Shown: positions 1 through 43,178 of the stretch, piece after piece | How the letters are laid out: every line of letters begins with the position of its first letter | Position numbering within the stretch: position 1 is the stretch's first letter | Source of the DNA: a virus | Reading direction: 5' to 3' (one strand) | DNA: 64,000 nt | IMG/VR virus record: IMGVR_UViG_3300045988_068671 | Coordinates: 20,518-84,517 of that record | Notes under the pieces: model-generated | What the model was told of the DNA's origin: nothing | Seen by the model: only the letters and a program-made list of their open reading frames with translations | The model's database searches: none | Translations under genes and position numbers: made by a program

Positions 1-487
1 ACATTTCGTATAAAATGTCGTGAGTTATAGAAGGATAGAATTTTTTTATATCCATTTTCAAGCAATACTTTGTTTCTTCTGGATGTTTCTATAACACCTT
101 AAACAAATCATACTCTACTTTATGAATACCTCTATTTCGTATAGAGGAATATGTTTGGTCTATAAATATACTAGTCCAAATAGGCTCCATAATATTCATT
201 ATAGCATGGTGAGTTATTCTATCTGGATAGTATGGAAGTCTAAAGATTAATCTTTCTTTAGGTTCGTATATTATAAAGGTACTATATTCAGAGGTTTGAT
301 AAATCAAATCCCTTAACTTATCGGATAATTCCTTATTTTCTTTTAATCTATTCTTATCATGCTGCTTGATTCCACATCTAATAGACTTATTTCTTCTAGC
401 TTTATCGTCAGCTAGTTCGATGTTATCTTCAGCGTATACTTTCTCGTGCAAATATCCTACACGTTTCAATTTTTTTATATATTTCAT
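1..487 (-). CDS. DGR reverse transcriptase, N-terminal part (C-terminus runs off the window start); frame continues through the in-frame TAG at 89-91
   Basis: RT motifs PYYPDRITHHAIMNIMEPIW (domain 1/2) and, after the TAG, LKMDIKKFYPSITHDIL (domain 3); adjacent TR/VR pair. Confidence 0.75.
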
Positions 488-612
488 CGGAAGCGTTCGA
501 GAATTAACCTACTAACACCCTTCATTCAACACTACGTTATCTTTTGCCTAGAGGCAAGGATATTACTTAGCAAACTAAAAAAAATAATAAAATGTTTCTA
601 AATATATAATAA

Positions 613-710
613 CTCGACATTGGAATTGGCATTGCTGACGTCATTGTTAGAATTGAAATAGCTGAGACCTGCATTGCTGCCATTATTCGCGTTGCTGCCT
701 ACTAGCAGTA
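613..710 (-). repeat. DGR template repeat (TR), non-coding, rich in AAY (Asn) codons
   Basis: 98 bp homologous to 814-911 and 29272-29365; it carries A where both copies differ. Confidence 0.8.
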
Positions 711-786
711 CTTTTTTGCCAATCAACGGTTTTTAGAAGTAATATCCTACGATTTATCATCTAAATCGATTTTTATATTGTATATC

Positions 787-2604
787 TTAAGATACTCTAT
801 TCAGAGTCCTGAACCCGACATCGGAATGGGCACCGCCGACGTCATCGTAAGAATGGAAAGAGCCGAGACCCGCATTGCCGCCACTACCCGCGCCGCCGCC
901 CACCAGCAGCGTGCGAAGCGCTGTGCTGCTTGCGTTGCAGTAATGGTAATCGCAAATATAAGTAGTAGCACTTCCTCCAACAGCGGATGGAATTATTTCA
1001 GCGGTTTCACCTAAGTCAAATGCCTTAATATAACCATCAGATGCTACTTCGTATCCTGCAACGGTTTTCTCTCCAACTACGTCGGTAAATTCCGATACGT
1101 TAGTAGTTGTATAGACAGTGCTAATCTCATTAGCAGCTGCCCTCACTATAACTACTCCGTCCAGGTTAGTCCAAATGTCTCCAAACGGATTATCGAACCC
1201 TCTCCAGCGAGGTACCTTAAATGTATGAGTTGCTACTGTACTTGTGCCATCTTGAGCTGTACATTCTGGAATAACTAAATCTTTTACTCCAGTGAAGTTA
1301 CCAAATTCATTGCAGTAACCACAAGGCGTAAGTGGATATGTTGCATTATATCCTGACCAACTTGTAGCTGCGTTAGCCCAATCTGTAACTCCAGGTCCTA
1401 AACCTCCTTGATGATATCCATCCGCAGTTAACTCTGCATTATATGCAGCCTAAGAATTAAAATTAGCATATTCAATGACATAATTCCAGTAGAATATCCA
1501 TTTGTAATATTCATAGCATAGCAATTCTGAACCAGCATTTGTTGCATATGTTCTCATAGTAGCTCTAGAAATATTAGTTCTAGGCTTTCCTAAATCACTT
1601 CTGAATATATCCTTAGTTTCTAATTCTGTAGTTAGATAATCATCGTAGTTAGCTCTATTTCCTCCACCTCTAAATGCAGTAGTAGTATTAACTACTGATA
1701 CAGCTTTTGGAGTTGCGGAGACTGTGGTATCAACTGTACTTCTGTATGCATCTATTAATAGTTCAGGAATTTCTACCCATGAATCATCAATTTTGACAGT
1801 AGAAGTTCTAACCCATCTTTTGTTTCCATCGCTGCCAGATTTTCCATAAAATTTAGGAGTATTAACTCTTACTGTTCCATCAGTTCCATCTAAGACAGAT
1901 GGAGTTTCTCCGTCTTCTTTATAAGACCAGTCATCTGGAAACAGATAGTAATTTACTACATCATTGTTTGCTACACAACCTCTATACGCTGATTGAATAG
2001 GAAGAGATTTATGCAGCAAAGGATTACCTATTCTAGTAAGTTCCGGAGATGCTACTGTAACATCCCATTCTACTCCATAGGAATATAAATCCATATTACT
2101 ATTTAGCTCAGTAATCTACTTATCAAGCTTTTGTTGTGCCTTCTACAATTCTTCCCAAGCCTCATTTAGCGCTGTAAATTGCTCTTCTAGCTTAGAACTT
2201 GAATCTGCCCATTCAGCAGTACCATCTGCTGAGAAAACTAGCATCTATCCAGATGCTCCTCCAGATGGAATATGTTTATTTCCAGAAGTAGTTGGATGTA
2301 CATAATTATTAGCATTATTAGCTATAGTACTTAACTTTTCCTTCTCAGTTTCAGTATAATTGGCTTCAGAAAGTCCCTTTCCTAACTCCTTATCTACTTT
2401 GCCTTCAAGCTCACCCTTAGTAGCTAATTCACTAATATCCTAATGCTCAGTTAAATATCCACTATCATTCTGTAACTAAGAAGTTTTAGTTGGAATTGCA
2501 TTAGCCTTGGCATATGTCGTATCTATAACATTTCCAGCACCATCGTAAGTAGCTTTTAAATCGTATGTGGTTTCCTCAACCTTTATAGATTTGATTGCTG
2601 CCAT
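787..2604 (-). CDS. DGR target protein 1: tail-fibre/receptor-binding-like, coiled-coil N-terminus, Gly-rich C-terminal VR; contains in-frame TAG (e.g. 1450-1452)
   Basis: ORF pieces 787-1146 and 1450-2094 share a frame and join across TAG; TAA at 787; ATG at 2602-2604. Confidence 0.65.
814..911 (-). repeat. DGR variable repeat 1 (VR1) at the C-terminus of the target gene
   Basis: about 22 differences from the TR, all at TR adenines; locally GC-rich. Confidence 0.8.
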
Positions 2605-2605
2605 A

Positions 2606-2818
2606 TCATTGTATTATTAAAGTTTCATCAACTACATCGTGATCTATTCCCTCTATGGAAGCAGTTAGGTCCTCAACAGCCTTCTACAATTCTGCTTTAG
2701 TAGCATAGTTCTTGAGAACTTCCTAGTCTACTCCAGAGCCTCCTCCTATACTTCCTCCAACAACTTTTACTGGTTTGGCAGAACTCTTAAACTGTCCTTC
2801 AATATAAATTGTTCCCAT
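2606..2818 (-). CDS. small hypothetical protein (about 70 aa) with one in-frame TAG
   Basis: ATG 2816-2818, TGA 2606-2608, hand translation. Confidence 0.35.
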
Positions 2819-2823
2819 ATTGT

Positions 2824-4689
2824 TTAAAATATTAATTGTTCATTTTCTCCATCTACCTCTACACTAGAACCTGGCTATAAAGCGTCTATCTTTTTCTACA
2901 ATTCGGCTACGGCCTAGCTAATTAGTTCTTCTACCTCAGCTTTGGTGTAGTATCTCTCTATAAGATATTCGCTCCTAACATATCCAGTATCTTGTAAATC
3001 TTTTTCTCCATAGGTGCAATAATAAGTATCTTCTTCAGTCTTACTATTCTCAACTAGGTCATCATAATCAGCTTGTGGTAAGCATACAAGTTTTGGTACT
3101 TCTTCAGTAATAGCAACTTGCTTGCCTCCAGCAAATAGCCTGTTATCTTCTGTGGTAAGTTTAACAGAACTCTCAATAACTTGCTCAGTTCCTGTTTCCT
3201 CAGAAGGTTCTCCAGTTGTTCCCTATTGTACTTCTTTTTCTCCAATTTTCTAAATAGTAATATCAGAAGTTTCTACTGATGTAGATTTCAAAAGCTCAGT
3301 GCTAAATTCTTTAGCAGCAGCAGCCTAATCATCCTGATATTTTTTCTAGGTAACAAATATGAAATCATCATCTCCGGTTTCAGGAGAGTCTCCCCTTAAA
3401 CTTTCTTTTGTTACGTAATCTTCGGCTATCTAATCTGATAAATCAGATAATGACTATTGAGTAGCATAAGTAGACTGAGCATTTTCCTTAGTAAGAAATT
3501 TGTCATCAACCTGCTAAATAGTATAATAAGCCTTAATATCTTCTGTAGTAACGTAGTTTCCAAGTTTTTGCAAACCTTGAACTATTTCATCAATCTACTT
3601 CTTGGAGTAATAATTTGTAGCAACCCAGGACTGATATTGATTGGTAGTATGATAATTCTAATCCAAATATTCCTTAGTAATATAAACCTTTGCATCATTT
3701 GTGACGTCATATACATAGTAATATGTATCAGGCTCTACCGTCCCTTCCTCTACTAACTTTAGATACTCTTCTTCAGTTAATGTTACTAAGTTCGGAATAT
3801 CCGATTCAGTAGCAATCTAATCTTCACCTATAAATAATCCTTCAGACCTAACGTCTACTACTAACTAGCTCTCTCCCTCTACTACAGGAGATTTTATCTA
3901 TCCAACAGTGATGCTTTCTAAGGAACCATCTCCATCTACCTTTAAAGTCTTATCTAGCTCATCTTGAATAGCCTATTGGTCTTCGTCATACTATTTCTTT
4001 GTAACAAAGACAAAATCATCTCCTTCCATTCCTTCTCCTCTAAGACTTTCTTTGGTAACAAATATGTCATCAGTTTCTTCCTTAGTATAATGGTTAGATA
4101 AGGCTTTAGATAACAAGGACTCTGGGTCCTCTAAATCTAGATCAGTTTTAGGGGCATAATTCTCAGTTAACTCTTCAAGGGTAGCATACTTGGAAAGGTT
4201 AGAGATTGTCTAGTCTAAATCCGTTCTAATCTGTACGACAGTAGTATTTAGAGCTTTCTATTTCAACTATTCCTCTATCTTTTTACCCCATTCTGCTGAT
4301 AAGTAAAACTAATCATCATCTAGGCTGTCTTCATATATATAATAATATGTTTCTGCATGAAGATATGTTTTATCTTCGTCTATAGGTTTAAAATCTTCTG
4401 TGGTATTTTTAGACCATTCCTTATATTCAGCCTCTGTACAGGTGATTATCTAAATAGATTCATAAGAAGCTTTCCAACCTTCTTTGTATTTAATCTTAGA
4501 CTTATCTACTAGCATATAAATATTTCCGTTATCTATATTTGAAACGGTCATGCCTTGATAAGCATATTTCTCCGGAATAGAATATAATTCGTCTAAATTA
4601 TCGACTACTGTTCTATTATCAAGAGGTTTAGGAGTTTCTACGGTTAAAGCAACACCTAATGTAGCATCACCTGTATATTTAAATGCCAT
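2824..4689 (-). CDS. tail-fibre-like repeat protein (about 621 aa) with many in-frame TAG
   Basis: repeated motifs (EEYLKLVEEGTVEPDTYYYVYD / EEVPKLVCLPQADYDDLVE...TYYC); ORF piece 4450-4689 ends at TAG; length divisible by 3. Confidence 0.55.
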
Positions 4690-6278
4690 TATTGTGATAA
4701 AGTAAAGTTAATTTGATGAGGTAGTGCTGAAGAGTAGGTATCCTTCTTAGTCCATACTTTATATGGGAATCCATTTATTTGTTCAGTAGAAGCTTCCCAA
4801 CCATTCAGATCGACATTCAAATATCCCAATCCTCCATCTACTGTGAAGGAATTTAGCTGAGTATTACTTCCTGGTAGTTTTATAATAGCCCTACCGCTTA
4901 ACGAAAATGTAATAGTGCCAGAAGCCTAATTAAATGGAACTAAAGACTATTTTATTAGCCCATCAGTATTTCCGGAATACCAAGGATAAGTAGCTGTTAC
5001 TTGTGCAGTTGCTGATATTGAACCAGCTTCCACCCTCTTGTCTGTAACCTCTCCCTTGTTGTTAATAAGATATTCTCCAGCAGCATAATTTACGGTACCA
5101 GAATGCACATAAACACCGATAGAATCATATGTTTCAGATTCTACAGGAGAATCATTATAGGTAATAGTTTCTTCTCTACCAGTTTCCTCTCCAGCATCAT
5201 TTTTTATAAATGTTAAAGTAGGGGTAAGTAAAGCGGATCCTACCTCCACAATCTAAGAGGTGAAGCTATAATACAACTAAGGATAAACCAAATCTCTAAC
5301 AACAGTAGGAAATAATAGAGTATCTATAATCTCATTAAACGGCTTTCCTTTCAATTTTTCGACTGTAGTTCCTTGAATAACAGTAGAAGTAGTATCATCT
5401 GGAAGTTCAGTTTGATAAGTGGCTATAGTTTCTAAACTTGTCTATATATTTGTGATATTCTTAGTATTGGAATCTACTTTAGAATCAGTGTTCTTCTAAG
5501 CTTCCTATACCCCCTTAACTTCTTCCTTTACCTCTGTTAGAGATGGTTCCAAGTCTTTTACATATATTCCAGGTAAAACTACTGTGGAAGGCTCCCCTTC
5601 CTCCTCTACTGGAGGAATTTCCTACTTAATCAGATGTATTGCATTATCCTCCTACTAAGATAGAATTACTTCTAGAGTATTATCATCCTTTATTTCTATG
5701 GTTTTGGAGTTTTTTAGACTATTAGTTATCCAATTCTAGATGTTTTTGTCAACATCTATATTTTTGATAGACTCGTTAATATCCTCTATTGCCTCATTAA
5801 TCTAGGTTATTTTCTCAGAAAGATTGTTTATGCCAGTTCTGTTAGATTCAATTTCTTCTTCGAGTTCTTCCTTAAGTACAGTAATAGAAGTTCTGATATT
5901 ACTTATATCAACTTTTATTTCCTCTATTTCTTCTGTATTAGCTTCGTACTAACTTATAAAGAATAAAGCATAATCTAAGGCATCTTTTACAGTATTGATA
6001 TTCTCTGCAACATCACTAGTATAAGTCCATTTCTATTCTATGTACTATACTAGATCTTTCTAGGCTTCTATAGTTCCTTCTATATTTCCCCAAAGAAGAC
6101 TCTATTCATCAGCGATGCCTAGATTCTTTCTAACCTTAGCTCTTTCTAATTCAGTTCTATATTCTCCAAGATAATTATTTCTTAAGAGAGGTATAGGTTC
6201 ACTTTTTATTAAATGTCCTTTCTTTCCACAAGGCTTTATATCAGCATTGCTTACCGAAGTGTAAATAGGCTGTATCAT
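4689..6278 (-). CDS. structural protein (about 529 aa), coiled-coil N-terminus, TAG-recoded
   Basis: contains ORF piece 4947-5249; TAA overlaps the next ATG (TAATG). Confidence 0.5.
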
Positions 6279-6433
6279 TATGATTCAATAATTGCTATTT
6301 AATAAATTCGTGATTATCTAATTTTACGGGTAGGTTAATAAAACAAATTAGATTCAAAATATCCTAATAATCTGGTCTATATCCCTTTCTAACCCTTTTA
6401 AGGAAATCCTCATACCTTTTAATAGCCTTTCTT

Positions 6434-7162
6434 TTAAGAGCATCCACAACCTATACGTTTATGTTCATGGTGATTGTTACAGAATCCACCGCAAGTACGG
6501 AACATCGCTAACAATCTTTCAGCTTCCATGAATTGTTTAAAGCCTATTAAATAATCTATAATGTTAAGTGTCATCCAGATAAAATCTCTTGCAAATATAT
6601 CTGCATCATGTTCTCTAGTTAAACACTTATTTAATAAAGAGTCAAAGAGTTTCTTACAGTAGTTAATATAACACTATTGCAGATTTCCTGTAAAGAACAC
6701 ATCTACCTTACATTTTTTGATAGTAGTCCCTTCTATATTTCTTTCAAGGATTTCTTTTACAGTACATTCCTCTAGCTCTCCATCTACTTCTTTATATAGT
6801 TTCTCTCCATCAGTTATATAGATAGTTTCATAATACTCCTTGTATTCATCAGATGAATTTTCATACCATTTCATATTAGGAAGAATTATGTGGTCTACTA
6901 CATAATATCCATCTTCTTTCACCTTAAATGTACAAGAGTCTAAATCCTCTGTATGGTCATTGAGAAGTACGTCTATCAAAGTAGCATCTCCTATACTAAC
7001 TTTTATGATAGTATTTAGGGTAGCACTTTCACTATACTTATAAGAATCATAGGAAGTTACTACCTCTAAATCTTCATCAATATACTATCCATATTCCTTT
7101 GAAAAGTCTTCAATAGTTATTTCCCCGTTAATCTGGGTATGTATATCAATACTAAATTCCAT
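6434..7162 (-). CDS. hypothetical structural protein (about 242 aa), Cys/His-rich C-terminus, TAG-recoded
   Basis: contains ORF piece 6674-6979, which ends at TAG; the true stop is TAA at 6434. Confidence 0.45.
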
Positions 7163-7172
7163 ATTATAATAA

Positions 7173-7907
7173 TTAAGACTCAGTAGTAGGCCATTGACCA
7201 TATTGAGCAGGAGTAGAAAATGGTTTCCACTTACCTTCTTGTCGTATACGTCTAGACATAAAAACTGAACTAAATGATAAACTAATATCTTGAGGATAGT
7301 CTGTCCATGTATATGACTAACCTTCAGGGGTCGGTGGTAGACTATTTAACTTACCAGCTGGTTTTCCATTCCAATAATAATTATAGTCATACGCTTTAGT
7401 TGGAGTAACAGTCGTTGTTTCATGTCCTTCTGAATCTACATATAGAGGATTTCCCTCCTCATCTGTTTTCTACTTATACTCAATAACTGGAGTTATTCCC
7501 TCAGTTCTAGTGTATATATTCTAGATAATAGTAGAAACATCGCTTGCTACAATCTCATAAATAGTAGTTCCCTGAGATTCGTCAGCCCCCTAGAAAGTAA
7601 ATTTAGTTCTTTTCCAGATATATGGATTCTCTTCAGTTGGAAGTTCAAAAGTATCAGTCCACTATTTAGTAGATAATTTTATCTCAGATTCTTCAGCAGT
7701 GTCAGCAGGTAAGTAATGAATCTTAATAATAATATTATTTACCGCTTCACTAGAACCAGAAAGGTCTGACACCTATTTAAATAGTTTCTTTAAATCTTCT
7801 TCCACATTTGATTTAGAACCAGAAGCATTACTAATAATTACTGAACCATCTGAAATAGGATAAATCTATTGCTAATCCTTATTATATACAATTGTTCCAG
7901 TTGCCAT
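7173..7907 (-). CDS. hypothetical structural protein (about 244 aa), TAG-recoded
   Basis: hand translation, ATG 7905-7907, TAA 7173-7175. Confidence 0.45.
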
Positions 7908-7908
7908 A

Positions 7909-10080
7909 TTAATGTATTTGTCTTATTTTGTCATTATATGGATTTCCATCATGAAGCTAAGCCAACTCTATTTCAGTTCTCTTTTCTTCTATATCCATTT
8001 GTCTATCTTTATATGTAGAATCAGATTGAGCTTTGAGCCAGTTAACCTTATATTCTAACTACATTTTCTGCTATTCTAATCCTAATCTCTACTCATCCAA
8101 ACTTTCTATCTTCTACTAAGCTTTCTATAGTTCTTGCTGTAACTGCTATGCCTATTGTGAAGTTTCTTCCAATTTTTCCTATAGCTACTATAGCTAATTG
8201 TTTTCTTCTTTACGAATCTATACTGCTTTCTTAACCTTGTATTTAAGGTCTGTAAGACTCTTAGCAGTTAGTGCTTCAAATATGATGTCAGGATCCATTT
8301 GCTGACTTTTAACAAACTCTGGAATAATAGCTTTAATAGTTTGTAAATCTTCCATTACTTCAGAGCTAGAAGTTATATGGATGTCATAATCAGTAACCGT
8401 AAAATACTCTGGAAGCGCTGTAAATATCTGCTAGTATTTATCTCCAAGTATAATAGTACCAGTCAATCCTTTCTTATATGTTATTTTAGCCTAGTTTAGA
8501 CTATCCAATAATATCTCACAAGTGATTAGGTCCATCTACTAGAAATAATGCTTGGTTACTATGTAAGAGTTAGTAACACCTTGCTTAATATTAGTTACAG
8601 CATCGTGAGTTTCTATTCCATTTAATCTTTCTCTAAATACTCCAGTTATAGATGATGTAGTTTGTTCTACTGATTGAATTGCTAATTCAATAGCCTATAC
8701 AGCCTAAGCTTTTAAGGTATCATCAAATCCATTGTATATCTAGTTAGGTGCTTGCGCTCCATCATTTCTTCCCTCCTAAGTGGAATCAATCCACATGATA
8801 CCACCCTTCTTGTATGCTAACCATTTCTACACTCTTTCTGGCCATTTTACGCCTAGGTTAGTAGGAAGCAATGACATATCCATGATTACTCCAGCAGTAC
8901 CGCTGTTAGCTATCAGGTTGTCCCTATAATAATTTAACAAGTCATATCTATCCTGTAGATGTGCACACTTTAATATCAGAGAGTACGGTTGTTGGGAACG
9001 ATTTAAGAAATATACCCCATTCACAGACAAAGAGCAGAAATTAGGATTATCTTTCGACCTCATAACAGTCTTGTCTAGACCTCTCAGAATATATATTTCT
9101 TCTCCAATTCTAATGGTATTGTATCTCTACATTACAAAATCGTCATCAGTTTCTATCCACTCTACATCATAAACAGGAATTAACTAAAATCTATGAGCAC
9201 TATATTCATTATCTGGATATCCAGGAATAGTTTCATGATTCTAATCTTCGTTTACTATAGTACAAGTGTCACCATAAACTCTTCTATAAACTGCAGCTGA
9301 ATCATCAGCTCTCCATTCATCTTTTAGTCTTTTCAAATCTTCTCTAGAGATTTCTTTTCCGTATTTAGCTAATATCTAGCTTTTACTCATCCATTTTCTA
9401 ACCACAACTCTATACGAATTTCTAACATATGGAGATTCTGGATTCCTATCTACGAAAGTATTTAAAGGATTCAGAACTTCTATTTCTATGTTAGTTCCAG
9501 AAGATGATGATTTTACTCTGAAAAATGTATAGCCAGTAATTAATAAATCTGTAAGTAACTATCGGAGTTTAGTTATTAAATCGGTTTCTCTAGACTGCAT
9601 GATATAATGAATAATATTCTATGCAGCTATCTCATATTGAGAAATAAAAGACTAATCAATGTCTTGAATAATTTTATCTAACTAAGTCTTCACGGCTTTA
9701 TCTGTAATATCTTTTCCGTCGATAAATTTCAGAATAGAATTACTTAAATGGTCTCTAAGAAATTTAACTATTCCTTTAGTTATTTCTAACTATTTTTCTC
9801 TGGTGATATTACTAATGGTATCTGAATCCTTACAAGAAATCTTCGGAAGGATAGGGGTTCCTAGATATTCCCCTACTAGAGCATCTACGTGCTTTTTTAG
9901 TAATGGTGTAAATTCTACAGAAGTAGGACTACCTATTCCAAAGTTTTCTTCCAGGTAACGAAACTATTCTGGGTCTCTCTTTCCGTTATAGTAATTATAG
10001 GCTTTCTATAATTCGTACTTATCATATACAAGCTCCGCAATAGCCTCGTTCGTCTTGTCTATCAGTTCTTTTTCTTTCAT
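7909..10080 (-). CDS. large virion protein, possibly portal (about 723 aa), TAG-recoded
   Basis: continuous frame with about 20 TAG; contains ORF piece 8827-9063; sits immediately downstream of the terminase. Confidence 0.45.
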
Positions 10081-10300
10081 AACATAAATTATGCTGTTCT
10101 GGAGGAAGTTTAGTTGCATTATAGTATTTAACTCTTTGTAACTTCCTACTTCTTAATTCTTCCTTTATAAATGGGAGAAATTCTTCATCAGGTAAATCAG
10201 CTATAATGACTAAAGGCATCTCTGACCTATCAAAGTTAAACGATACCTTATAACCAACTGGATCTAGGTTCTGAATTTCAAGCCCACCTACGTATTCCAT
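10022..10300 (-). CDS. small hypothetical protein overlapping the TerL 3' end
   Basis: ORF-track frame 10022-10483 trimmed to the internal Met. Confidence 0.25.
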   Translation of the reverse strand: MEYVGGLEIQNLDPVGYKVSFNFDRSEMPLVIIADLPDEEFLPFIKEELRSRKLQRVKYYNATKLPPEQHNLCYERKRTDRQDERGYCGACI

Positions 10301-12638
10301 TTTGTACAAGTCTCTCATATAACCTAGGATCACTTGTTTCAATTCTGTATGGGTCATCGTATTCATTTTTTTGTATGTTAGTTTCAAAAGTCTTAGAAGT
10401 TGGTATAACCCCAAATCTTTTGATTCCTCTCTCGTCGTAATAATAACCATAATCTTGGAATTGTTCAACTTCTTTTTCAACAAGCACTGGCTATCTTCCT
10501 GACAATTCCTAGTCTGCCAATTCTGTCATTCCTACAGCGGCTACAATATCGAATTTACCTTTATTCTCATCATTATATCCAGTAAATTGGTCTAACATTT
10601 CTTCAAACCATATAGTATGACAGAAATCCTCAATAAAGGCTGCTGTCAAATCAGTATGTTGTTCTATAATAGTTTTGGTAGCGGGTGTTCCGTACTATTT
10701 AGTAGTTCCATTCTTGACGTCTGTTAGAGTAGCTCTAGGTCTTTTCATAAAGTAGTTTAAACAACCCTTTTCTCTAGCCCAGGTAATCATACCTACACGG
10801 GTAGCTTCTATGTTTATTCTACAATTATAGTATCTAGCTAAACACATAGCTATTTTATAGGCTTCTCTAATGTCATTAGGTCTGTCTTTATACATAGCAA
10901 CATACTACGGTTCGTTTAGACCAAATGCTCTTCTTTTTATAGTTATACAGAAATCAGAAGGATCTCTTGTTTCTTTTGAAGTTTGACTAGCTCCTATATC
11001 AATACCGTCTATTCCTGCAACATATAAATCATGCATTTCTTTATACGCTGGAGATTCAAATTCTTCTCCCCTTTCCTCAGCTTCCTGTCTAAGTTTATCC
11101 ATCTATTCTTTATACAAATCAGACCATACAGGATGTTCAAGTATCTTTACTTTTCCGTTAATATTAGGAATCCATTTAAAACCATCTATATTATCCTAGG
11201 TGTGTTTATTGTTTTTATAGAAGTAGTCTATGTATCCAGATTCTGGTCTTGGTCCTATTTTCTTAAGTCTTATATTAGCTAATTGGTCCGCAATAAGAAT
11301 CTTGTTAAACTTGTTGACACCTTCAAGATTAAATGCTTCTTCTGCATTCCAACATCGTTCTGCACACTTCTTTAGATAGTCATCTGGAACCGCTAATAAG
11401 TTATCACGCTCTTCCTATAGATACTTCTTATATTCTACTGTATTACATACACCCCTATGGTCCATGTATTCTGAATTTAGGGACTAGACAAAATACGGAA
11501 TGAAGAATCCACTTTCAATAGTAGTTCCATCCTATGTATAATTATGTCTAAATGGAAGAACTTTGTAAGCTTTTGGATTGTAATATATCTTCTTAAGACC
11601 TGCTAATGGAGCACCCATATCACCACCAGTACCTCCAAATAACATTGTTCCACGAGGTTTACCCTGAACTTCACAAAGCTCTTGCCCCTGCACTACAGCA
11701 GTATCTAGTCCAGGCCAAGACCCTGCTTCATCATATATTAATAAGTCAACACGGTCTCCACGAATATTAGATGCCTTAGCTCCATTTATTCCAACTACTT
11801 CTGATTTAAATCCAACATCCTCAAACTGTCCGTTTACCTTAATCTGTTTACCAGACTTTTTTCTTAAGTCTTGGTCAATCAAACGTAGTTTGAAGAATCC
11901 CCCTCCTGTACAAGTATTCAAGAATGTTAAAGCATTATCAAACTTACTAAAAGTACCTTTAAGGAAGGTATCATTAAAACAAGTAATCATTACTCTGCTT
12001 CTTCTGATTACTGAATACATTCTTGCAGATAAGGATGCATTTATTTCAGAGAATCCAATAGAACGAGCTTTCATTAGAGCTGCGTGTTTATGCAGGACTC
12101 TAGCCATCTACAGATAATGAAAGAACATATAATGAGATGCGAAAAATATAGGAAAGTCACTACTTGTTCCTTCTCCAGATGCTTTGTTATCATCAATAAT
12201 AGGAAGCTAGTAGAAGTTTAGGAAGAAATAGTTATCTCCAGTAATTGTATAACCATTAACAGTCATTCCATATTTACATCTTCTATACTATTCCTTCCAA
12301 AACTCATTATATCTCTTACTATCTTTTAGATATGGACAATACTTTCCAGTTTTTCTATATACTTCTCTAGTCTCAGTAAACCAGTCTGGGTCGAAGTCAA
12401 GACCATGTGTCTCATCTATTGGTCTATATCCAGTTATTTCATAAGATAAAGTAGGGTCAAATACTTCTATCTTATCTCCTCTTTTTACATCCCAATAATC
12501 AGCATTTTTGTCCCTTTCTTCTCTTATCTTCTATACTAGTTCTCTAGCTTCTTTGGCATCCTCTTTTTGTTCTTTCTCTCTTACCTAATCTACTATATTC
12601 TAGATTTCTTCAGGTAATATTTTTTTCTTTCTAGGCAT
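10278..12638 (-). CDS. terL: terminase large subunit (about 786 aa) with about 12 in-frame TAG
   Basis: Walker-B-like GDRVDLLIYDEAGSWPG, C-terminal nuclease-like region; ORF pieces 11532-12107, 10905-11102, 10695-10895 and 10278-10487 are co-frame. Confidence 0.7.
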
Positions 12639-12640
12639 AA

Positions 12641-13207
12641 TTAAAAGTCTCCTGGGTCAAAGCCGTCTGTAGCTCCACCTCTTACAGTAGATTGTTCTGT
12701 AAGCTCTTTCTTAACCTGCTCTTCTAGTGTTACTAATTCTTCATGAACTTTATGAAGAGTAGCCATTTCTTTCATTACCTTTTCAGCTTGAAAGACGGGT
12801 TTGCCATTATTATCACGTTCATTTAAATCTACTATAGTATCAAAATAATCAATAAACTAGTCAGCTGCTCTTTTAGCTGCTTCTAGAAGTTTTATTGATT
12901 TGTTAGAATCCTACAATGCTCGGTATTTTCTACAGGCTTCCCTGAATAACGGGTCATTAAATTCGGATTCAGATAGTCCAGAGTCACTAATAGCTTCATC
13001 ATGTCTTTCATGTTCTGAATATTGGCTATAAGGACTCTTCCAATCAATAGCTAGATAAATGTAAGACAATTCTCTAGTTACTCGTTCCTTGTCAACAGAT
13101 TTATCTCTCTGTATCAAAGCCTTAAACTCTTTAACTAGAAGAAGCTCTGGTTCATTTATCTCTAACTATTTAGTTAAAGTGTTATAATTAAATACATTCA
13201 TACTCAT
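12641..13207 (-). CDS. possible terminase small subunit (188 aa), TAG-recoded
   Basis: position immediately upstream of terL; TAA overlaps the terL ATG; contains piece 12911-13117. Confidence 0.4.
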
Positions 13208-13237
13208 CAATCATTAACATTAACATCTTTAATCTTT

Positions 13238-14455
13238 TTATTTCATTTTAGAACCGCATTTACTTACTTTCATTTTAGAACCACAAGCATCCTTCTTAGC
13301 ATACTTTGTTCTATCTGGAACCCATTTTCCATTTTTGAAATTTCCCTTGTGTCCCCTGTTCGCCATAACCTCCTGGTCATTATATTTATTAATTGATACG
13401 GAATCTCTGGACGCTTCATCCTTTGCAGATTTCATATCCTTTTTATACTAAGCTCTTCCAGCTTTGAACTTGTCAACTTCATTAGCTTTCTTAGTAACCT
13501 TAGTTCCTTTCTATGCTTTTTGGCAAGCTTTGCAGATTCTTCCTCCCTGTTTAAAATAAACAAGTTCCTCTCCTTCTGGGCATACTCCTTTTAATTTTTT
13601 ATAGTATTCTAGTTTAGCTCCAAGTCTAGCCATAACTCCGCCTTGCATCTTCTACATAAATTCTTGATACTTGGCTTTGATTCCATCTTCTCCTAATTGC
13701 TGAGCATATTGTTCTAAATCCTACTCAGATTGTAATTGTATTCCTTGTGCTGCGGCATCCTGTATTAAGTATGCCATAAATGCTTTTTGTAATTCTTCCT
13801 AATTAGCCATTGCTCCTCCTTGTTGATATTTAACTCGTTGCTATCTAGCAGTTGCCTTTGGTATATGTTCCCAACTTCTCTAATTTTTGAGCTATTCTGG
13901 AGTTAGTTTCTGCCCATACATATTAGTTGTAGGCGGCTTTATCCATTGTTCTTGGATAGTTCCAGTATGCTCTCCAGTTTCCTAGTCTACTTGATTTTGG
14001 TACGTAGTAGCTCTTTTTCCGTCTTGACTATATGTAACATAGGGATTATTCATTACTGGAGTTCCTACCTCTACTGTTGCTTTCTTTCCATTAGCTAACT
14101 ATGTTCCATACACTCCTTTCCCCCATTTGAATTGAGTTAGTCCTCTCTTTCTGGCTTCTCTAAATGCTGCACCAAACCCCTAGACTCCTCTTAAGTCGTC
14201 GTTTTGAATTTGTTGCTAAGGTGCATTTATTTTCTTAGGAATAGTAGGAGTAGACGGCTTTAATCCTAATATAGGTTTTTGTTGTATAGCTGGCACAGCA
14301 CTTCTTTTCTTCTACTATGCAGTATTTCTAATAGAGTTCGGATTACTTTGCCAAGTCTAATGCAACTGTTGTAAAGTTCTTCCGTCTAACTCTGCGTCTC
14401 CATATATAGTCTTGATATGCTACATTAACTCTGGATCAAATTGTATTTTCGCCAT
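13238..14455 (-). CDS. Gln/Lys-rich hypothetical protein (about 405 aa), TAG-recoded
   Basis: C-terminal piece 13238-13435; continuous frame upstream with many TAG. Confidence 0.45.
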
Positions 14456-14665
14456 TATTCTTCTACTTTAATTAAGTCTTTTGTATTAAATACTGCTTCC
14501 TGCATTAATCCAGAATCAGTAAACCATCTACATCTTAGTCCTCGTAATCCTTGGTTATCTTTAAATAAAGCTGCTTCTCTTCTTAGAACAAGCATAACTG
14601 GAGAGTGCATTACTTTACACTACCGTAAAGTAACACAATCCCCAGGCTTAAAATAAACTTTTTCA

Positions 14666-18638: not shown

Positions 18639-18655
18639 AACTATTAATTTTGGCG

Positions 18656-18727
18656 TTGCCCTACTAGGATTCGAACCCAGACTAAATGATTTAGAGTCAT
18701 CTGTGCTGACCATTACACCATAGGGCA
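18656..18727 (-). tRNA. amber suppressor tRNA, anticodon CUA (reads UAG); resembles the window's tRNA-Gln
   Basis: full cloverleaf: acceptor TGCCCTA/TAGGGCA, anticodon arm GATGA-CTCTAAA-TCATT, T-loop TTCGAAT; D-arm identical to tRNA-Gln at 33540. Confidence 0.8.
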
Positions 18728-20278: not shown

Positions 20279-21071
20279 CACGACTCTCTCGTGTATAAAT
20301 AAGTCAAACGTGCAACTCTAAGGTATTACGAGTATAAATAAAATGCCCATATGAACTCCATCATTGGAACATTGGTCAACGGAGAAATCAACAACAAAAC
20401 AAAAAAAAATCAAAACCGAGTTAACTTTTGTAGTAGTTTTAGTTTTTATGTCTGGCTGATAGGAAAGACTATCATTTCTTTTGAAAATTCAGTTTCACAA
20501 AAGAAAATATGGGCAAGTAAGGAGAAGAATGTTCCACAAACTCAAAGGCAGATTTTCCTACTTTTTCCAGTTTTCAAAAAATCGCCAGTAGGACGAGTTT
20601 TATAACTCATACTACAATGATTATTTACTCTAACATTAGCCTATAAAAAGGCAACAAAAAGCGGGGTTACGCAGATAGCCCAATATCCGAAAATAACTGC
20701 TATTAATGAAAATGAGAGTTCGCAAACTTATCTCATGAGTAAGGAGGATTGAGCTATAAGATTGGTCACTTATAGCAATATATGAAAGTACTGCTGACAT
20801 ACCAGTAGACCATGTATGTCATATTTTTATATGTTATGCAATTGTATTAGAAGTTGCCTGGTATAAGCCGCTAGATTAATAAGGCTAGCTGATAAGAGGA
20901 TACCTCATAAGGGTATATTTCCTACCTCGAACTCAGTCGCAAGAATATGGATTAGCTACCTATATTCTTAGTGAACGTTAGTAACGTAGCTATTTGATTT
21001 TCAGTATAGGAAACTGAGAATTAAGTAGTTGAATAACTCTCTATCTTATACTAGTTGCCAAGATAGAGTTT

Positions 21072-21141
21072 TCCCCATTAGTATAATGCATTGCGCCTTC
21101 CTCTAAAGAAGGAGATTCTGGTTCAAACCTGGAGTGGGGAA
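21072..21141 (+). tRNA. second amber suppressor-like tRNA, anticodon CUA; D-arm atypical
   Basis: perfect anticodon arm CCTTC-CTCTAAA-GAAGG, T-loop TTCAAAC, acceptor TCCCCAT/GTGGGGA. Confidence 0.55.
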
Positions 21142-21284
21142 CTTAGTATTTGAGGACTACAGCTACTTGTAGGCTCTATTTGCTGTTAAGGACTATAATG
21201 GGTACGCCCAGAGACTATGTAATTGTTGTGAAACAATTCAAAGGAGAGTGGCACAGGAAGGTCTTTTGATAGTGTTCATTTTTT

Positions 21285-21310: not shown

Positions 21311-21404
21311 AAAACTCAGCTTAGGAGAGTATAAAATACCATCTGATGAGACTAGGACGAAATATACTTTGTATATAATGGTATAACTAATTAAAACTAA
21401 GAAG

Positions 21405-21956: not shown

Positions 21957-22292
21957 ATGAAAGAGATAAAAATTCTAGAAACAACAAAAGTTCTCTCTGA
22001 TAGAGAGGCTGATTTACTTTGTTCCATATTATGGTCTTTAGGTATTTATCCAGAGATTACAGCACTTGAAAGGAAAAATAGAAACATTACACTGGCGAGT
22101 ATTCTTCCAGAAATGCAACCTAGGACAGCTAGCCGTATTAGAGCTATGTTGGATGATCAAGTTTATATCTCTCTCAACATTTTCATGGAAAACTATTCTT
22201 GGCGTGATTTCATGAAAATGCCTGGTGTTGGAAGGAAATCGCTAAGTGATTTAAGATCAGTTTTGCAAAAGTACGGATACAAAACATTCTAA
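21957..22292 (+). CDS. hypothetical protein (111 aa)
   Basis: ORF track. Confidence 0.5.
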   Translation: MKEIKILETTKVLSDREADLLCSILWSLGIYPEITALERKNRNITLASILPEMQPRTASRIRAMLDDQVYISLNIFMENYSWRDFMKMPGVGRKSLSDLRSVLQKYGYKTF

Positions 22293-22421
22293 CTCGACTT
22301 CGCGAGTATAAATAGGCTTTAGGCGGAGAGCGGTAGGTAGAATAGTCTACCTACGTAGTGTAAAATACTTGCTATTTAGCAAACAAATGTGTAGTATTCT
22401 ATAAATAAAAATTAAATATTT

Positions 22422-23612
22422 ATGGAAGACAAAGTAAAAGAATTTAGAGACAAAAATCCTATACTAGACTTCCTAGCAGGATTTATTCCTGGAGTTGGAG
22501 AAGCATAGGACGCACATGATTTTATTCATGCCGCAAAAGATAAAGATTATATAAGTATGGGTTTAGCAGCTACAGGCTTAATTATTCCAGGAATCACAGG
22601 AGGGCAAATAAAGAAACTTTCAAACGTTTTAATAAAGAAAGGTTGGCGAGAAACGAAGGGAAGAATATTTGACCCATAGGGAGTTGAATACATTAGGAAT
22701 AAAGAAGGAAAACTTCAAAGCTTATCATCTTACAAACAGACTCAAGCCGTAGAAAAAAGAATTGAGGAAAATAAGTCTAAGGCTAAAGCCAGATCTAATC
22801 AACAAAAGAAAGTAATCAAAGAACATAACGAAGAAGCAGAAAAGTTTAGACTTCGAACGGGACTTGATTATTCTTTAGAAAATTGGCAATCACTAGCTTC
22901 AGGACATAAGATGTCACAAGAGGAAATAGACTTATTCACCAAAAAAGCTTTTCCCTAGTTTGTTCAAACTTATAATGAACTAATTAAGTCTGGTAAGCTG
23001 ATAAGATAGCCTAGTGGAAGATATACTGCTAATGGAAGGAAGAATCTAAGCAACATAGAAACTATGTATTATATCTAGGCAAACTCTCCTCAAGGTAAGA
23101 ATCTTTTATATAATGGTATCACAATGAGGTCTGGAATTAAGGATAAACATAGTTTTGAAACCGGAAAAAATAACCAGAATTATGAGAAATGGTTCAGTTC
23201 TAATCCCAGAGGAGCAAAAGCTTACGGAGACTTTGCAATCTGGGGACTACCAGTTAAACCTTCTATAATTAATCCCAACTGGGATGACTAGATTAGGCTT
23301 ATAAAAAGGCAGAAAGCTAATCCATCTTCTAATAATTGGGCAGGAGGTCCAATAGGTGCTTATTTAAGCAAGGATAGAGCACGTTCTGTAAATATGTCTG
23401 AAGGTGTTCTTACAGACGATTATGCAACATAGGTTCTTAATTCTGACCCTATAAAAGGAGTATTTACTATAGTAGGTCCAGATATTCCTGTAAAATCTGT
23501 ATTTGGAGGATCTGGAATGTATGATGTTAGTCCCAAAAAGCTATATAATCCATTCTTATCTCTTACCATGATGGGAATGCTAGGTTATAAACATTTAAAT
23601 AAAGATGAATAA
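22422..23612 (+). CDS. hypothetical protein (about 396 aa) with 7 in-frame TAG, in a region the ORF track shows as empty
   Basis: single frame ATG-to-TAA, length divisible by 3; TAG at 22506, 22677, 22956, 23007, 23076, 23289 and 23430. Confidence 0.55.
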
Positions 23613-33611: not shown

Positions 33612-34477
33612 CTAAATACAGCTTCGCTAGGGAGACCTAGCCTTGCATACCAAGAGGCGGTAAAGTCAGCTGAATAAATCCGTTGCGGTATTACCTAGTA
33701 ATAATCTAAAGCTAGCTAAAGAATAACTAGGAACATAGGGGTAGTAAGGCTGTATTTCTAAATTATATAATTATGGATAAGGAGAATTACAGAAAAGTAG
33801 TTAAAATCTGTGAGAAAGGCAGATGTAAAGTGAGAGAAAATTCATTTGGAGTTTGTTGGTGTGTAAGATGTGGTAAATTACACTCTGATGCTCCAGCTAA
33901 GTTAAAACCTGAAGAGCAAATCATAGTAAAATGAAAGTGATAATTAATAGCTGTTTACTTACAGAACTACTAAAGAATTTCCAAACTTCTCTAGATAATA
34001 TGAGAGTTATTGGAGAAACGTATTCTGTAGAAGATATGAATGAGCTGGTTGAGGAGTTTGCTAAGTTTAACATAAAGCCTGATGATATTATCGGTAAAAC
34101 TATAATATTTAAATGTCAATCAATAAGTGCTTATGCTTAACGTAACTTCTTTCAATATTGGGGAGATAACTAGTAAAGTATCTCTAAATACTCCCAGTAG
34201 CGGAATAATCCAGAGGTCTCATCCTAGAAGTAAATTCGTAAGGTTTCATTCTAGGTCTTCTATGTCAGAATACGCATTCTCTAGTAGACCAAGACTAAGT
34301 AAGGATGGGCCAGAAATTGTAGTATTGCAGATTATGGTATTCGGTAATGATGAATTGCTGGTTGAATATGTCTGCGAACAGGAACTAACAGTAGAATAGG
34401 TTATTAGACCGGTAAATAACCTTCCGTAGCCAGTCGGACGTTGGGAGCTTATAGTCCTACGATAGTGAGACTAAATC

Positions 34478-37485: not shown

Positions 37486-37847
37486 TTATGGATAAATATA
37501 TTAATGGAAATTTAATAAAGAGGATACTAGTTTTTAAAACTAGAAAACATCCAGAATGGAAGCATAGAATAGCGGATACCAAATTTTTATTCTGGAAAAG
37601 GCATATTGATTATTGGTATCTTCTAGACCCATGCTTTGGGACTTACTCTGAGAAAGGGATGCTCGAATCAATTAGTAAGAGAACGTCCTTCTACAAGGAT
37701 GGAATAGTATACCAGAAGCCGCATATTATTCTAGAGTTCTCTGAGAGACATGATGAGTCTATCTATTTTGATAGTGATGAGGAAATGGAAGGCTGGCTTG
37801 AGTCTTTCAGGCAAGAATTTGGAAAACCATTTATGTATATAGAATAA
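37464..37847 (+). CDS. hypothetical protein (127 aa)
   Basis: ORF track. Confidence 0.45.
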   Translation: MSRILGLIMDKYINGNLIKRILVFKTRKHPEWKHRIADTKFLFWKRHIDYWYLLDPCFGTYSEKGMLESISKRTSFYKDGIVYQKPHIILEFSERHDESIYFDSDEEMEGWLESFRQEFGKPFMYIE

Positions 37848-37968
37848 TACCTTTATCCCAGTTTAGAGCTTAGCTCAAGTAGTGAAGAACAGTAGCTATT
37901 GGTTAAAACGAGGTGGAGTGCCAGACGAAAGACTGGAATTAACATAGTTTAACTTTGAATCTCCGACT

Positions 37969-38310
37969 ATGCGGAGTATCATTATGGCAGAATTGATTTT
38001 CTTACCTAACGGAAAATGCGATTTGAAATTTCATGCTAACATCAAAAACTTTAAAAGAGTTGAGATTGTGAAGCATAAGAAGAACTTCTTCAGGGTCTAT
38101 GTAGACCGCAACGATAGCGTTTATGACGTGAAACGGTGCGAAGTCATCACTTGGAAGACCATAGAGAGAGGGAAAAGAAAGGTGAATGTTCCTGACAAGG
38201 TTGACGAGGTACGTGATGTACATCTGTTTGACAAGACTAAGGGAAATCCGTTCAAGATTGCGGTTACTAAAATAATCGGCGAGATTGAGGCACAGGAATT
38301 ACTATCTTAA
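37969..38310 (+). CDS. hypothetical protein (113 aa)
   Basis: ORF track. Confidence 0.45.
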   Translation: MRSIIMAELIFLPNGKCDLKFHANIKNFKRVEIVKHKKNFFRVYVDRNDSVYDVKRCEVITWKTIERGKRKVNVPDKVDEVRDVHLFDKTKGNPFKIAVTKIIGEIEAQELLS

Positions 38311-38514: not shown

Positions 38515-38817
38515 ATGAAAATAAAGTGTACAGTATGTAATAAAGAATTTTATTATGGAGACCATAACTCTCCAATGTTTATTGATGAGGTTTGGAACAA
38601 GATAATAAATTACTTTAAGCTAACCAATTTTGAAAAAGAAGCTGCAAAGAAATTCTCCTCTTATTACAAAGGGGGAGGTAAAGATTATTATCCAGACCAC
38701 CATGTGTTTATCTGTAGCGAATGTGCGGAGAAGGCTCTAGGTAGGGAAATAACTGATAAGGATATTAATGATTCATTATTTAATATCCCATTTAGAGAGA
38801 AGTACTTTAAATCTTAA
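38515..38817 (+). CDS. zinc-ribbon protein (CTVC...CSEC)
   Basis: ORF track. Confidence 0.45.
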   Translation: MKIKCTVCNKEFYYGDHNSPMFIDEVWNKIINYFKLTNFEKEAAKKFSSYYKGGGKDYYPDHHVFICSECAEKALGREITDKDINDSLFNIPFREKYFKS

Positions 38818-38818
38818 T

Positions 38819-38903
38819 ATCCGTGTGGGTGAATGGTTTAGCCATCAGTCTGCAAAACTGAAAAGAGAAATCTTTAATGAGGGTTCGAATCCCTCCACGG
38901 ATT
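38819..38903 (+). tRNA. unusual tRNA: GCA (Cys) anticodon with a 17-nt class II-type variable arm
   Basis: acceptor ATCCGTG/CACGGAT, TCAGT-CTGCAAA-ACTGA, variable stem AAAGA-GAAA-TCTTT. Confidence 0.6.
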
Positions 38904-38923
38904 CTAATTTTAAATTTAAAAAT

Positions 38924-39559
38924 ATGGCATATATTTATTGCATTACAAATTTAATTAATAGCAAGCGATACGTAGGAAAAACTACTACTTCTATAGAAGA
39001 GCGCTGGAAGGAACATTGTTATGACTTTTAGAAAGAAAGATGCAACAAAAGACCTTTATATGATGCCATGAATAAGTATGGTGTTGAGAACTTTATGATA
39101 GAGGAATTGGAATATGTAGATAGTAACTCTGAATTATCTGAAAGAGAAATCTATTGGATAAAAGAGCTAGGAACTTATGGTTCTAATGGGTACAATGCCT
39201 CTAAAGGAGGAGATGGCACTATTCTATACAATCATAGTGAAATTGTAGAATTAGCTAGATTGGGATATACTAGTTCTTAGATACAAGAAAAAATAGGGTG
39301 CTGTAAAGACACTATTTACAAAGTTTTGAAGGCAAATAATATAAAAATTAGAAAAAGTAACGCAAAGTTAATTGCTTAGTATGACTTAGCAGGTAATTTT
39401 ATACAGGTATTCTTTGGTTCCAGAGAAGCTTAGGAATGGTTAATTAATAACGGAATTACTGACAATAAATCTGCATAGAGTCATATTATAGGATGCTGTA
39501 AGAATAAAACCAAATCATAGTATGGCTACATTTGGAAATATCTTCCAGAGCCTATTTAA
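38924..39559 (+). CDS. GIY-YIG homing endonuclease with about 6 in-frame TAG
   Basis: YIYCITNLINSKRYVGKT ... YNASKGG; ORF pieces 38768-39031 and 39068-39280 are co-frame across TAG. Confidence 0.6.
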
Positions 39560-40629: not shown

Positions 40630-40702
40630 GGGCCGTTAGCTCAAATGGCTAGAGCGCTGGTTTTGCACACCGGAAGATAGGGTTCGAGTCCCTGCGTGTC
40701 CA
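40630..40702 (+). tRNA. tRNA-Ala(TGC)-like with G3:U70 but a partly mismatched acceptor
   Basis: loop TTTGCAC. Confidence 0.45.
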
Positions 40703-42591: not shown

Positions 42592-43154
42592 GGGCCTACT
42601 TGGATTTGACAGGCGATTACGAATTATAAGGACGTGTAGAGCGCAATCTCTTTAAACGAAGAAAACAAATAACTGCAGAAATTGCACCTGTAAGAATGGC
42701 AGCCTAAGCTGCTGACTTATTAATAGACAATATTAATCAAGTCGGGTTAATGGGGAGACCTAGAAACAGAAGAGGTTTGTATCTAAGTGTTATAACGAGA
42801 CCTTCAGGGAAGAATCATAGTACCTACAGGTTACAGTGAAGCTTAGATGCATTAACTTGAAAGCCAAAGGTTAGTAGAGCTGAAATCTCCACTGCCTATC
42901 TATGGGCTACAAATAGACGTTCTCCAACGTAAATGGAGTGGTGGAAGAATGACTTCTAGTCAGCCCCCAGTTTGGTAGTTTGTAAATTAGTTAGTAGGAG
43001 GACTGCTGGTTCACCTCTACTGTAAAGAATCCAGCTCTTCTAATAAAACTATCTAAATGCTAGAACTCACTAGCTGATGTAATAAAAATGAGACGCACGT
43101 TATCCTTGTAATAAGGGTTGTTTGGACACGGGTTCGACTCCCGTTAGGTCCACA
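42592..43154 (+). ncRNA. ssrA: tmRNA (ssrA-like); tag reading frame 42675-42707 (AEIAPVRMAA-stop)
   Basis: 5' GGGCCUACUUGGAUUUGACAGGCG and 3' GGACACGGGUUCGACUCCCGUUAGGUCCA closely match E. coli tmRNA termini; G3:U70. Confidence 0.7.
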
Positions 43155-43178
43155 TGACAGGGCTATAGTTCAACCGAT

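Follow-up and report, generated by a model that had tools for sequence, protein, structure and literature searches.

A diversity-generating retroelement with an adenine-specific repeat pair in the TAG-recoded structural module of a crAss-like phage, probably of the Zeta type

Gene content, genetic code and phage context

The window (the whole 64,000-nt stretch of viral DNA that was analysed) carries, in minus-strand order, genes for the large terminase (TerL), the portal and several structural proteins, followed by the target gene of a diversity-generating retroelement (DGR) with the variable repeat (VR) near its 3' end, the template repeat (TR) and the reverse transcriptase (RT) gene (Table 1). 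VR and TR are separated by 103 nt, and the RT start codon is 123 nt away from the TR.

Table 1. Positions of the element, its surrounding genes and the CTA-anticodon tRNAs in the window
Feature	Position	Strand	Remarks
DGR reverse transcriptase gene, 5' part	1..487	-	162 codons; ATG 485-487; in-frame TAG 89-91; continues past the window edge
RT-17-like structured RNA element	473..561	-	TR-to-RT spacer; Rfam RF03020; ends over the RT start codon
TR	611..708	-	98 nt; 30 adenines; non-coding; 10 AAY codons in the VR frame
VR	812..909	-	98 nt; codes for the target C-terminus up to the last ten residues
DGR target gene	787..2604	-	605-aa tail protein; predicted C-terminal C-type-lectin (CLec)-type domain; TAA stop 787-789
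Portal	7909-10152	-	phrog_6547
Large terminase	10278-12656	-	phrog_6681
Suppressor tRNA, anticodon CTA	18655..18727	-	ARAGORN; Rfam tRNA 66.3 bits
Second CTA-anticodon tRNA	21072..21142	+	ARAGORN; weaker Rfam tRNA match, 32.6 bits

Under translation table 11 the RT/target region breaks into short ORFs. With TAG read as sense, the fraction covered by ORFs of 150 aa or longer rises from 0.42 to 0.68, and a contiguous minus-strand block is obtained from ~14.5 kb to position 1, in which single ORFs contain as many as 34 in-frame TAGs; much of the window beyond this block is TAG-free. Six in-frame TAGs were located in the target gene (2476-2478, 2440-2442, 2245-2247, 2143-2145, 2116-2118 and 1450-1452), and the RT gene, described beforehand as interrupted by TAG, contains one such codon in its windowed part. 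Since the standard code splits both RT and target into short ORFs, standard pipelines tend to miss DGRs of this kind, and the element is a natural example of such an easily missed type.

Using ARAGORN, 27 tRNAs were detected in the window, two with anticodon CTA and 25 others. The minus-strand CTA suppressor has its closest similarity to the tRNA-Gln(TTG) that the phage itself encodes (33540-33612, 71% identity); the second CTA tRNA is not close to tRNA-Gln (52% identity). At the sole TAG position compared, 1450-1452 in the target gene, the codon aligns with a Gln that is conserved in at least 90% of the homologues. These comparisons support a reading of TAG as Gln, and the minus-strand suppressor tRNA is probably a Gln tRNA and would be needed for translating the target and RT genes. 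The TAG recoding proposed in the preliminary description therefore stands, on ORF coverage, the CTA suppressor tRNA and the aligned Gln.

The TerL is 26-29% identical to the TerL proteins of Crassvirales. A megablast search of positions 1-8000 against annotated phages gave no match, thus no close annotated relative is contained in the collection searched. Zeta crAss-like phages (a proposed family in the Crassvirales) are marked by a crAss-type TerL and portal, a genome size of ~155-190 kb and numerous tRNAs, and amber or opal recoding is frequent among them. The element probably resides in the genome of a large crAss-like gut phage of ~185 kb and Zeta type, an assignment based on agreement in genome size, number of tRNAs, GC, amber code, RT length and TerL similarity.

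The repeat pair, its target and the reverse transcriptase

A repeat search returned TR and VR as direct copies at an offset of 201 nt with 79% identity. At each of the 21 mismatches the 611-708 copy has a T on the plus strand and hence an A on the minus strand, where the changes from TR to VR amount to 17 A>G, 3 A>C and 1 A>T; by the hypergeometric distribution, 21/21 mismatches would land on the TR's 30 adenines (of 98 positions) with a probability of 1.1e-14. The preliminary description had set the repeat at 613-710 and 814-911, with about 22 mismatches, all at adenines of the former copy. The repeat itself proved real and the limits had to be shifted by 2 nt; within the earlier limits, 22 of 23 mismatches fall on adenines, the exception, position 710, lying outside the repeat. 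Tabulated by TR base within the corrected limits, the mismatches are adenine-specific throughout (21/21). A search pattern with N at each TR adenine matched TR and VR only in the 64-kb window and had 0 matches in 100 shuffles, so that one TR and one VR are present in the window.

Read in the VR frame, the TR has AAY at 10/32 codons, in line with the Asn-rich character already noticed for the A-bearing copy. The VR translates as LLVGGGAGSGGNAGLGSFHSYDDVGGAHSDVG and stops 30 nt short of the TAA that closes ORF 787-2604, so the coding copy does form the C-terminal part of that gene, as had been stated. The TR/VR homology stops at GTT, and near the 3' end the TR reads GAG and the VR GGG, the adenine in question being G in 23/23 VRs (those of the window and 22 related contigs). 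No recognisable IMH or IMH* element, of the sort expected at the 3' ends of VR and TR, was found, and a search for a hairpin or cruciform 3' of the VR gave only a weak 6-bp stem across the VR boundary that is not conserved among eight crAss-type DGRs.

The 605-aa target protein matched the tail-protein family phrog_5302 (E 3.4e-84), and its N-terminal part is coiled-coil-like; searches of Pfam and NCBIfam gave nothing meaningful for this protein. For its own C-terminal 220 residues the AF2 model was mediocre (pLDDT 67), and Foldseek matches of this model to TaqVP and Mtd were non-significant. Because of this poor model, a 72%-identical homologue was used as a proxy, and its predicted structure supports a DGR-type CLec fold for the C-terminal domain of the target; in DGRs the VR usually occupies the 3' end of the target gene and falls in a CLec or Ig fold. 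Taken with the phrog_5302 assignment, the homologue's model agrees with the earlier view of the target as, most likely, a receptor-binding tail protein.

The RT fragment (162 aa) matched the reverse transcriptase family phrog_1423 (E 1.5e-44), and its 26.5 bits against Pfam RVT_1 stayed under the cut-off because the sequence is partial; the RT homology expected for translated ORF 1-487 is thus given by phrog_1423, and the RT motifs quoted from this ORF beforehand are present. The best NCBIfam match of the fragment was a group II intron RT/maturase model with 41.6 bits (cut-off 300). In tblastn, RTs of crAss-like phages shared 45-62% identity with the N-terminal 160 residues, and there were matches to Bordetella phages too. 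As the window edge truncates the RT, catalytic motifs were taken from a related contig (L026), whose RT is identical to that of the window over the shared residues and comprises ~428 codons with five in-frame TAGs. It carries PIGNYLSQ (GxxxSQ signature) and YADD, matches RVT_1 with 1e-19, and has 8ub7_A as its best PDB match (3e-45), which is the BPP-1 brt product (100% identity in tblastn); group II intron and retron RTs followed with 8e-16 or weaker. The hallmark of DGR-clade RTs is [I/L/V]GxxxSQ in motif 4 along with YxDD. The relative's sequence therefore supports placing the RT closest to the BPP-1 DGR enzyme.

The spacer between TR and RT was matched to Rfam RF03020 (RT-17) with 28.7 bits (gathering threshold 40.4; E 0.001, local search). 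Parts of the RT-17 element that are seen include the CCUUGCCUC/GGCAAAA hairpin, with the sequence CCUUGCCUCUAGGCAAAA, and the UAGUAG...UCGAA elements. At the equivalent place, ending at the RT start, RT-17 matches were obtained in cr6_1 (44.5 bits, above gathering), cr7_1 (38.6), cr55_1 (32.9) and LMMB (30.5), and the spacer is conserved among relatives of the phage (pi 0.047). Positions 473-561 may accordingly be regarded as a candidate for the portion of the DGR RNA that binds the RT and primes cDNA synthesis. The minimum free energy fold of TR plus spacer was not more stable than shuffles (z = +1.2), and therefore thermodynamics alone gives a global structure no support. In BPP-1, Weinberg et al. 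located RT-10 in the interval from TR to brt, and they suggested speculatively that further RT-n motifs might act in other DGRs (PMC5737381); the RT-17 placements in crAss-type spacers fit this idea. The Rfam RT-17 motif is now tied to the TR-to-RT spacer of crAss-type DGRs. In a scan of positions 1-1000 for sigma-70 promoters and terminators, hits were no better than chance or fell on the wrong strand.

Between VR, TR and RT there is no room for an Avd ORF in gaps of this length, which agrees with the preliminary description, where no avd-like ORF had been seen between the elements. In relatives the RT is followed by ORFs of 125 aa and 73 aa and then by a giant ORF of 2,172 aa, and no Avd-type Pfam domain was found in these post-RT ORFs. 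Avd was thus not found at the canonical positions, as in most crAss-like DGRs; it is common in DGRs and not universal. The 125-aa post-RT protein (phrog_11557) was considered as a substitute for Avd, being homologous in four DGR loci, including the small post-RT ORFs of cr7_1, cr55_1 and cr50_1, yet it is not DGR-specific: it also occurs in IAS virus, where no RT is annotated nearby, and cr50_1 has a second paralogue past the next large ORF. It was rejected as a DGR accessory for these two reasons, and looks like a tail-module gene. A candidate for supporting processive adenine-mutagenic synthesis without Avd is the C-terminal extension of the RT, ~100 residues relative to Brt.

Variation among related contigs and activity of the cassette

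Related loci were located with a 45-nt exact TR probe, which gave 31 IMG/VR contigs, many of them ~185-190 kb in length. In the window and 22 related contigs, the VR sequences are all distinct (23/23) and the TR is identical in 21/23. Of the TR/VR differences at these 23 loci, 511/525 are located at TR adenines, and VR columns have a mean entropy of 1.21 bits where the TR has adenine vs 0.04 bits elsewhere. The heterogeneity of the VR that had been predicted for populations is hence found between public contigs, confined to TR-adenine positions at that ratio. Nucleotide diversity was calculated from a MAFFT alignment of 15 loci: pi in the VR is 0.49 at adenine sites vs 0.018 at non-adenine sites, compared with 0.14 in the target gene upstream of the VR and 0.10 in the RT. 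In the TR pi is 0.0014, an invariance that is partly an ascertainment effect, since the loci were found by a TR probe.

Low diversity at non-adenine VR sites amid flanks that are 10-14% diverged is what continuing overwriting of the VR from the TR predicts, and argues against a relic cassette, in which the TR/VR pair would record past activity and the target would no longer be diversified. The RT is not whole within the window, as such a relic might have it, but the relatives carry full-length RT ORFs with intact motifs. In a relic, non-adenine differences would moreover be expected to build up, whereas they make up 0/21 in the window, pi at non-adenine VR sites is 0.018 vs 0.14 in the adjacent gene, and the VR is different in each of the 23 genomes. 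A relic is therefore considered very improbable.

Still less credit is due to an ordinary diverged duplication or gene-conversion tract beside an unrelated retron or group II intron RT, with an adenine bias due to chance or composition. The group II intron RT/maturase model that ranks first for the RT fragment in NCBIfam would suit it, at a score far under the cut-off; the match of the RT to BPP-1 Brt is, however, ~30 orders of magnitude better than to group II or retron RTs, the RT has GxxxSQ where those enzymes have GxxxSP, and neither intron RNA domains nor a retron msr/msd were found in an Rfam search. Chance restriction to adenines has a P of 1e-14, and the pattern is replicated in 22 further genomes. 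VR hypervariability from inter-strain recombination or selected point mutation, with no reverse transcription involved, can practically be discarded. The compared lineages are diverged enough (flank pi 0.10-0.14) to have given selection time, but neither process would restrict changes to the adenine positions of a separate non-coding repeat or keep the VR almost the same as the TR at the remaining 68 positions.

The locus is accordingly interpreted, with a probability of about 95%, as a functional DGR located among the late, TAG-recoded structural genes of a crAss-like gut phage of ~185 kb, probably of the Zeta type. The identification as a DGR from TR, VR and RT made in the preliminary description is upheld by the adenine-specific mismatches, the BPP-1-like RT, the tail protein target with its modelled CLec domain and the VR heterogeneity at TR adenines. 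Judged from sequence, the DGR is very probably active, and the comparison between genomes suggests retrohoming.

If the element works as BPP-1 does, the RT would bind an RNA made of the TR and the downstream RT-17-like spacer, misincorporation opposite adenines would accompany the reverse transcription of this RNA, and the VR would be replaced by the cDNA. In this way ~22 adenine-templated codon positions would be re-randomised on the ligand-binding face of the CLec tip of the tail protein, and the receptor specificity would be altered. As RT and target both carry in-frame TAG, they would be translated only while the amber suppressor is active; diversification would then be tied to late infection, and mutagenic retrohoming may be gated to this stage via the CTA suppressor tRNA.

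Comparison with known elements and the 3'-neighbour effect

The preliminary description implied novelty for an amber-recoded DGR, which does not hold: the kind is already known from Zeta crAss-like phages, reported in 2025 (PMC12386605), and the first crAss-like DGR was published in 2020 (crAssphage LMMB; PMC7290462). DGRs were found in 18/43 Zeta genomes, with amber-suppressed RT genes, a GxxxSQ motif and C-type-lectin tail-fibre targets, the RTs being similar to those of Intestiviridae and Suoliviridae, and Avd was present in only two Zeta crAss-like phages (PMC12386605). Rows 13-16 of Table 1 in that report list genomes of 176-189 kb with 23-27 tRNAs, GC ~35%, a CTA suppressor, amber code, a DGR and an RT of 414 aa (PMC12386605).

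The related contigs found here (~185-190 kb) are alike in size to those Zeta phages (~176-189 kb), and 23-27 tRNAs, GC ~35%, a CTA suppressor and amber suppression inside the RT gene are common to both. A GxxxSQ RT, a tail fibre target with C-terminal CLec, the lack of Avd and the RT similarity to Intestiviridae and Suoliviridae are likewise shared; the RT has 414 aa in the Zeta report vs ~428 codons here (relative L026). The element may thus already have been described, its likeness to the published Zeta genomes being one of properties. The Zeta report raises the question whether the DGR cassettes still operate (PMC12386605). The between-genome analysis indicates that they do, the VR appearing re-randomised at adenines and homogenised to the TR elsewhere in lineages that are 10-14% diverged. 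The general picture of how DGRs work is unchanged by this element.

Seven annotated Crassvirales DGRs (LMMB, cr7_1, cr6_1, cr55_1, cr56_1, cr50_1 and cr115_1) were also compared. Their layout, tail protein(VR)-TR-RT, is the same as here, their TR/VR differences are adenine-only as well (16-22 each), and no Avd is annotated in any of them; RT-17 is located just upstream of the RT, as here, in cr6_1, cr7_1, cr55_1 and LMMB. Their genomes measure ~100 kb, the TerL of the phage studied is only 26-29% identical to theirs, and, unlike in these phages, its late genes, RT and target included, are densely TAG-recoded.

BPP-1 is the prototype DGR, with the order mtd-avd-TR-brt. The present element differs from it in having no Avd gene, an RT that is ~100 residues longer at the C-terminus (relative L026), TAG-recoded genes, a spacer RNA that is RT-17-like instead of RT-10, and no recognisable IMH or cruciform. 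According to the homologue's model, the target fold would be nearer to TaqVP than to Mtd. With Thermus aquaticus TaqVP (PDB 5VF4) the sequence identity is 16% only, and TaqVP is a bacterial protein, whereas the domain here sits at the end of a phage tail protein of 605 aa whose N-terminal part is coiled-coil-like.

As a separate observation, the substitution spectrum was seen to vary with the base 3' of the TR adenine. In the VRs of the phage and its relatives, an A followed by G had G as outcome in 178/184 cases; T or C was the outcome in 1/69 cases for A followed by C and in 69/207 for A followed by T. Across seven independent crAss-type DGRs, 44/47 adenines preceding a G became G and none became T or C (Fisher P = 2e-13, G vs T+C compared between strong and weak neighbours). 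Among four-fold degenerate third positions with a G next to them on the 3' side, 66/68 had G as outcome, and selection at the protein level is therefore an insufficient explanation.

Brt of BPP-1 reportedly misincorporates at ~30% on average. That crAss-type DGRs copy a TR adenine before G almost deterministically as G, with a bias far above this value, is proposed tentatively and is somewhat more doubtful than probable. The near-deterministic A-to-G outcome that natural A|G sites show may exceed that of the BPP-1 system, with few synonymous sites in the other contexts. In kind, the neighbour effect is known, because for BPP-1 Brt a dominant 3'-neighbour effect was reported in 2026, G being hardly misincorporated in the NAG context (PMC12875486). 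If the proposal is true, TR AGC and AGT 'Ser' codons would in effect become fixed Gly in the VR, and TR CTA, GTA and GCA codons would in effect become fixed G-ending codons. The TR adenines would then fall into two classes, randomised (AAY codons) and programmed A-to-G, and the pattern would be a natural-population counterpart to the neighbour-dependent error spectrum of the BPP-1 enzyme.

Adenine substitution in the variable repeats

The outcome of substitution at template-repeat (TR) adenines was influenced by the 3' neighbour of the adenine, as seen in the TR (611-708) and variable repeat (VR, 812-909) of the window, in the related contigs carrying a matching TR (L002-L032) and in the loci of seven other annotated crAss-type DGRs (L001, L033-L038). 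Adenines followed by G were replaced by G in 178 of 184 cases in the window phage and its relatives, and in 44 of 47 cases in the seven other DGRs, where T or C was found in none. At four-fold degenerate sites with this neighbour, G was likewise present (66/68). For the window phage and its relatives, adenines followed by C gave T or C in 1 of 69 cases, and those followed by T did so in 69 of 207. An effect of the 3' neighbour has already been published for Brt of BPP-1 (PMC12875486); no statement of near-complete A-to-G replacement before G was found in the literature.

In cr6_1 (L037), the VR (approximately 1806-1900) contained an in-frame TAG opposite AAA of the TR, located within the annotated tail-protein CDS. 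In an amber-recoded phage, TAG codons made by the DGR would be sense, so that one stop-codon hazard of adenine mutagenesis would be gone. Despite the presence of a TR, a VR was not found within six non-adenine mismatches in several related contigs (L004, L016, L021, L023, L031 and others), in some of which the region is cut by the edge of the locus. In L004, the target ORF was present (5185-7044), yet without a VR match, and the VR of this contig may therefore have diverged or been replaced.

Genes following the reverse transcriptase

In relatives of the window phage and in three Suoliviridae, the DGR RT gene shares its 3' end with the gene for a conserved small protein of approximately 110-125 amino acids, which belongs to phrog_11557 (family annotated as function unknown); the two genes overlap there. 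IAS virus also has this gene, without an RT annotated nearby, and phrog_11557 is probably a gene of the tail-fibre module. Downstream of the RT in L026, a relative with full-length RT, the DGR cassette was followed by a giant ORF.

Coordinates of features in the window and in further loci
Feature	Locus	Position	Strand	Remarks
tRNA-CTA, first	window	18655-18727	-	71% identity to tRNA-Gln
RAGATH-14 RNA	window	20849-21042	+	183 bits; immediately upstream of second tRNA-CTA
tRNA-CTA, second	window	21072-21142	+	weak tRNA match, 32.6 bits
RAGATH-1 hammerhead ribozyme	window	21313-21382	+	68 bits; ~170 nt downstream of second tRNA-CTA
Pistol ribozyme	window	22292-22360	+	63 bits; ~1.1 kb downstream of second tRNA-CTA
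Stop-to-stop ORF	window	22416-23612	+	7 in-frame TAGs
Stop-to-stop ORF	window	37519-38310	+	8 in-frame TAGs
Stop-to-stop ORF	window	38753-39559	+	6 in-frame TAGs
tRNA	window	40630-40702		Rfam call only
Phage-encoded tmRNA	window	42592-43155	+	Rfam 68.8 bits, gathering 47
phrog_11557	L026	6499-6882
phrog_11557	L001	7193-7558
phrog_11557	L036	5226-5561
phrog_11557	L038	1572-1916; 4264-4650
phrog_11557	L039	4001-4378
Giant ORF	L026	7108-13626		2,172 codons, 39 in-frame TAGs; off-window

TAG recoding, tRNAs and structured RNAs

Recoding of TAG was confined to regions, in-frame TAG use differing between positions 1-14500 (minus strand) and 14600-64000 of the window: ORFs of the minus-strand structural block carried as many as 34 in-frame TAGs each, and the majority of plus-strand ORFs had none. 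A small number of stop-to-stop ORFs on the plus strand, which may be recoded genes or non-coding frames, were rich in TAG; three examples are listed in the table.

Using ARAGORN and Rfam, 27-28 tRNA genes were located within approximately 31 kb (18655-50000), with Tyr, Cys and Gly duplicated and three Met/CAT; the two tRNA-CTA genes were unlike each other. The tmRNA was absent from the ARAGORN output. Its Rfam call spans 564 nt against a model of 374 positions, a difference that points to a large insertion or to a tmRNA of the permuted or two-piece type.

The second tRNA-CTA sits inside a cluster of structured RNAs, all on the plus strand, and self-cleaving ribozymes might process or regulate the adjoining suppressor tRNA.
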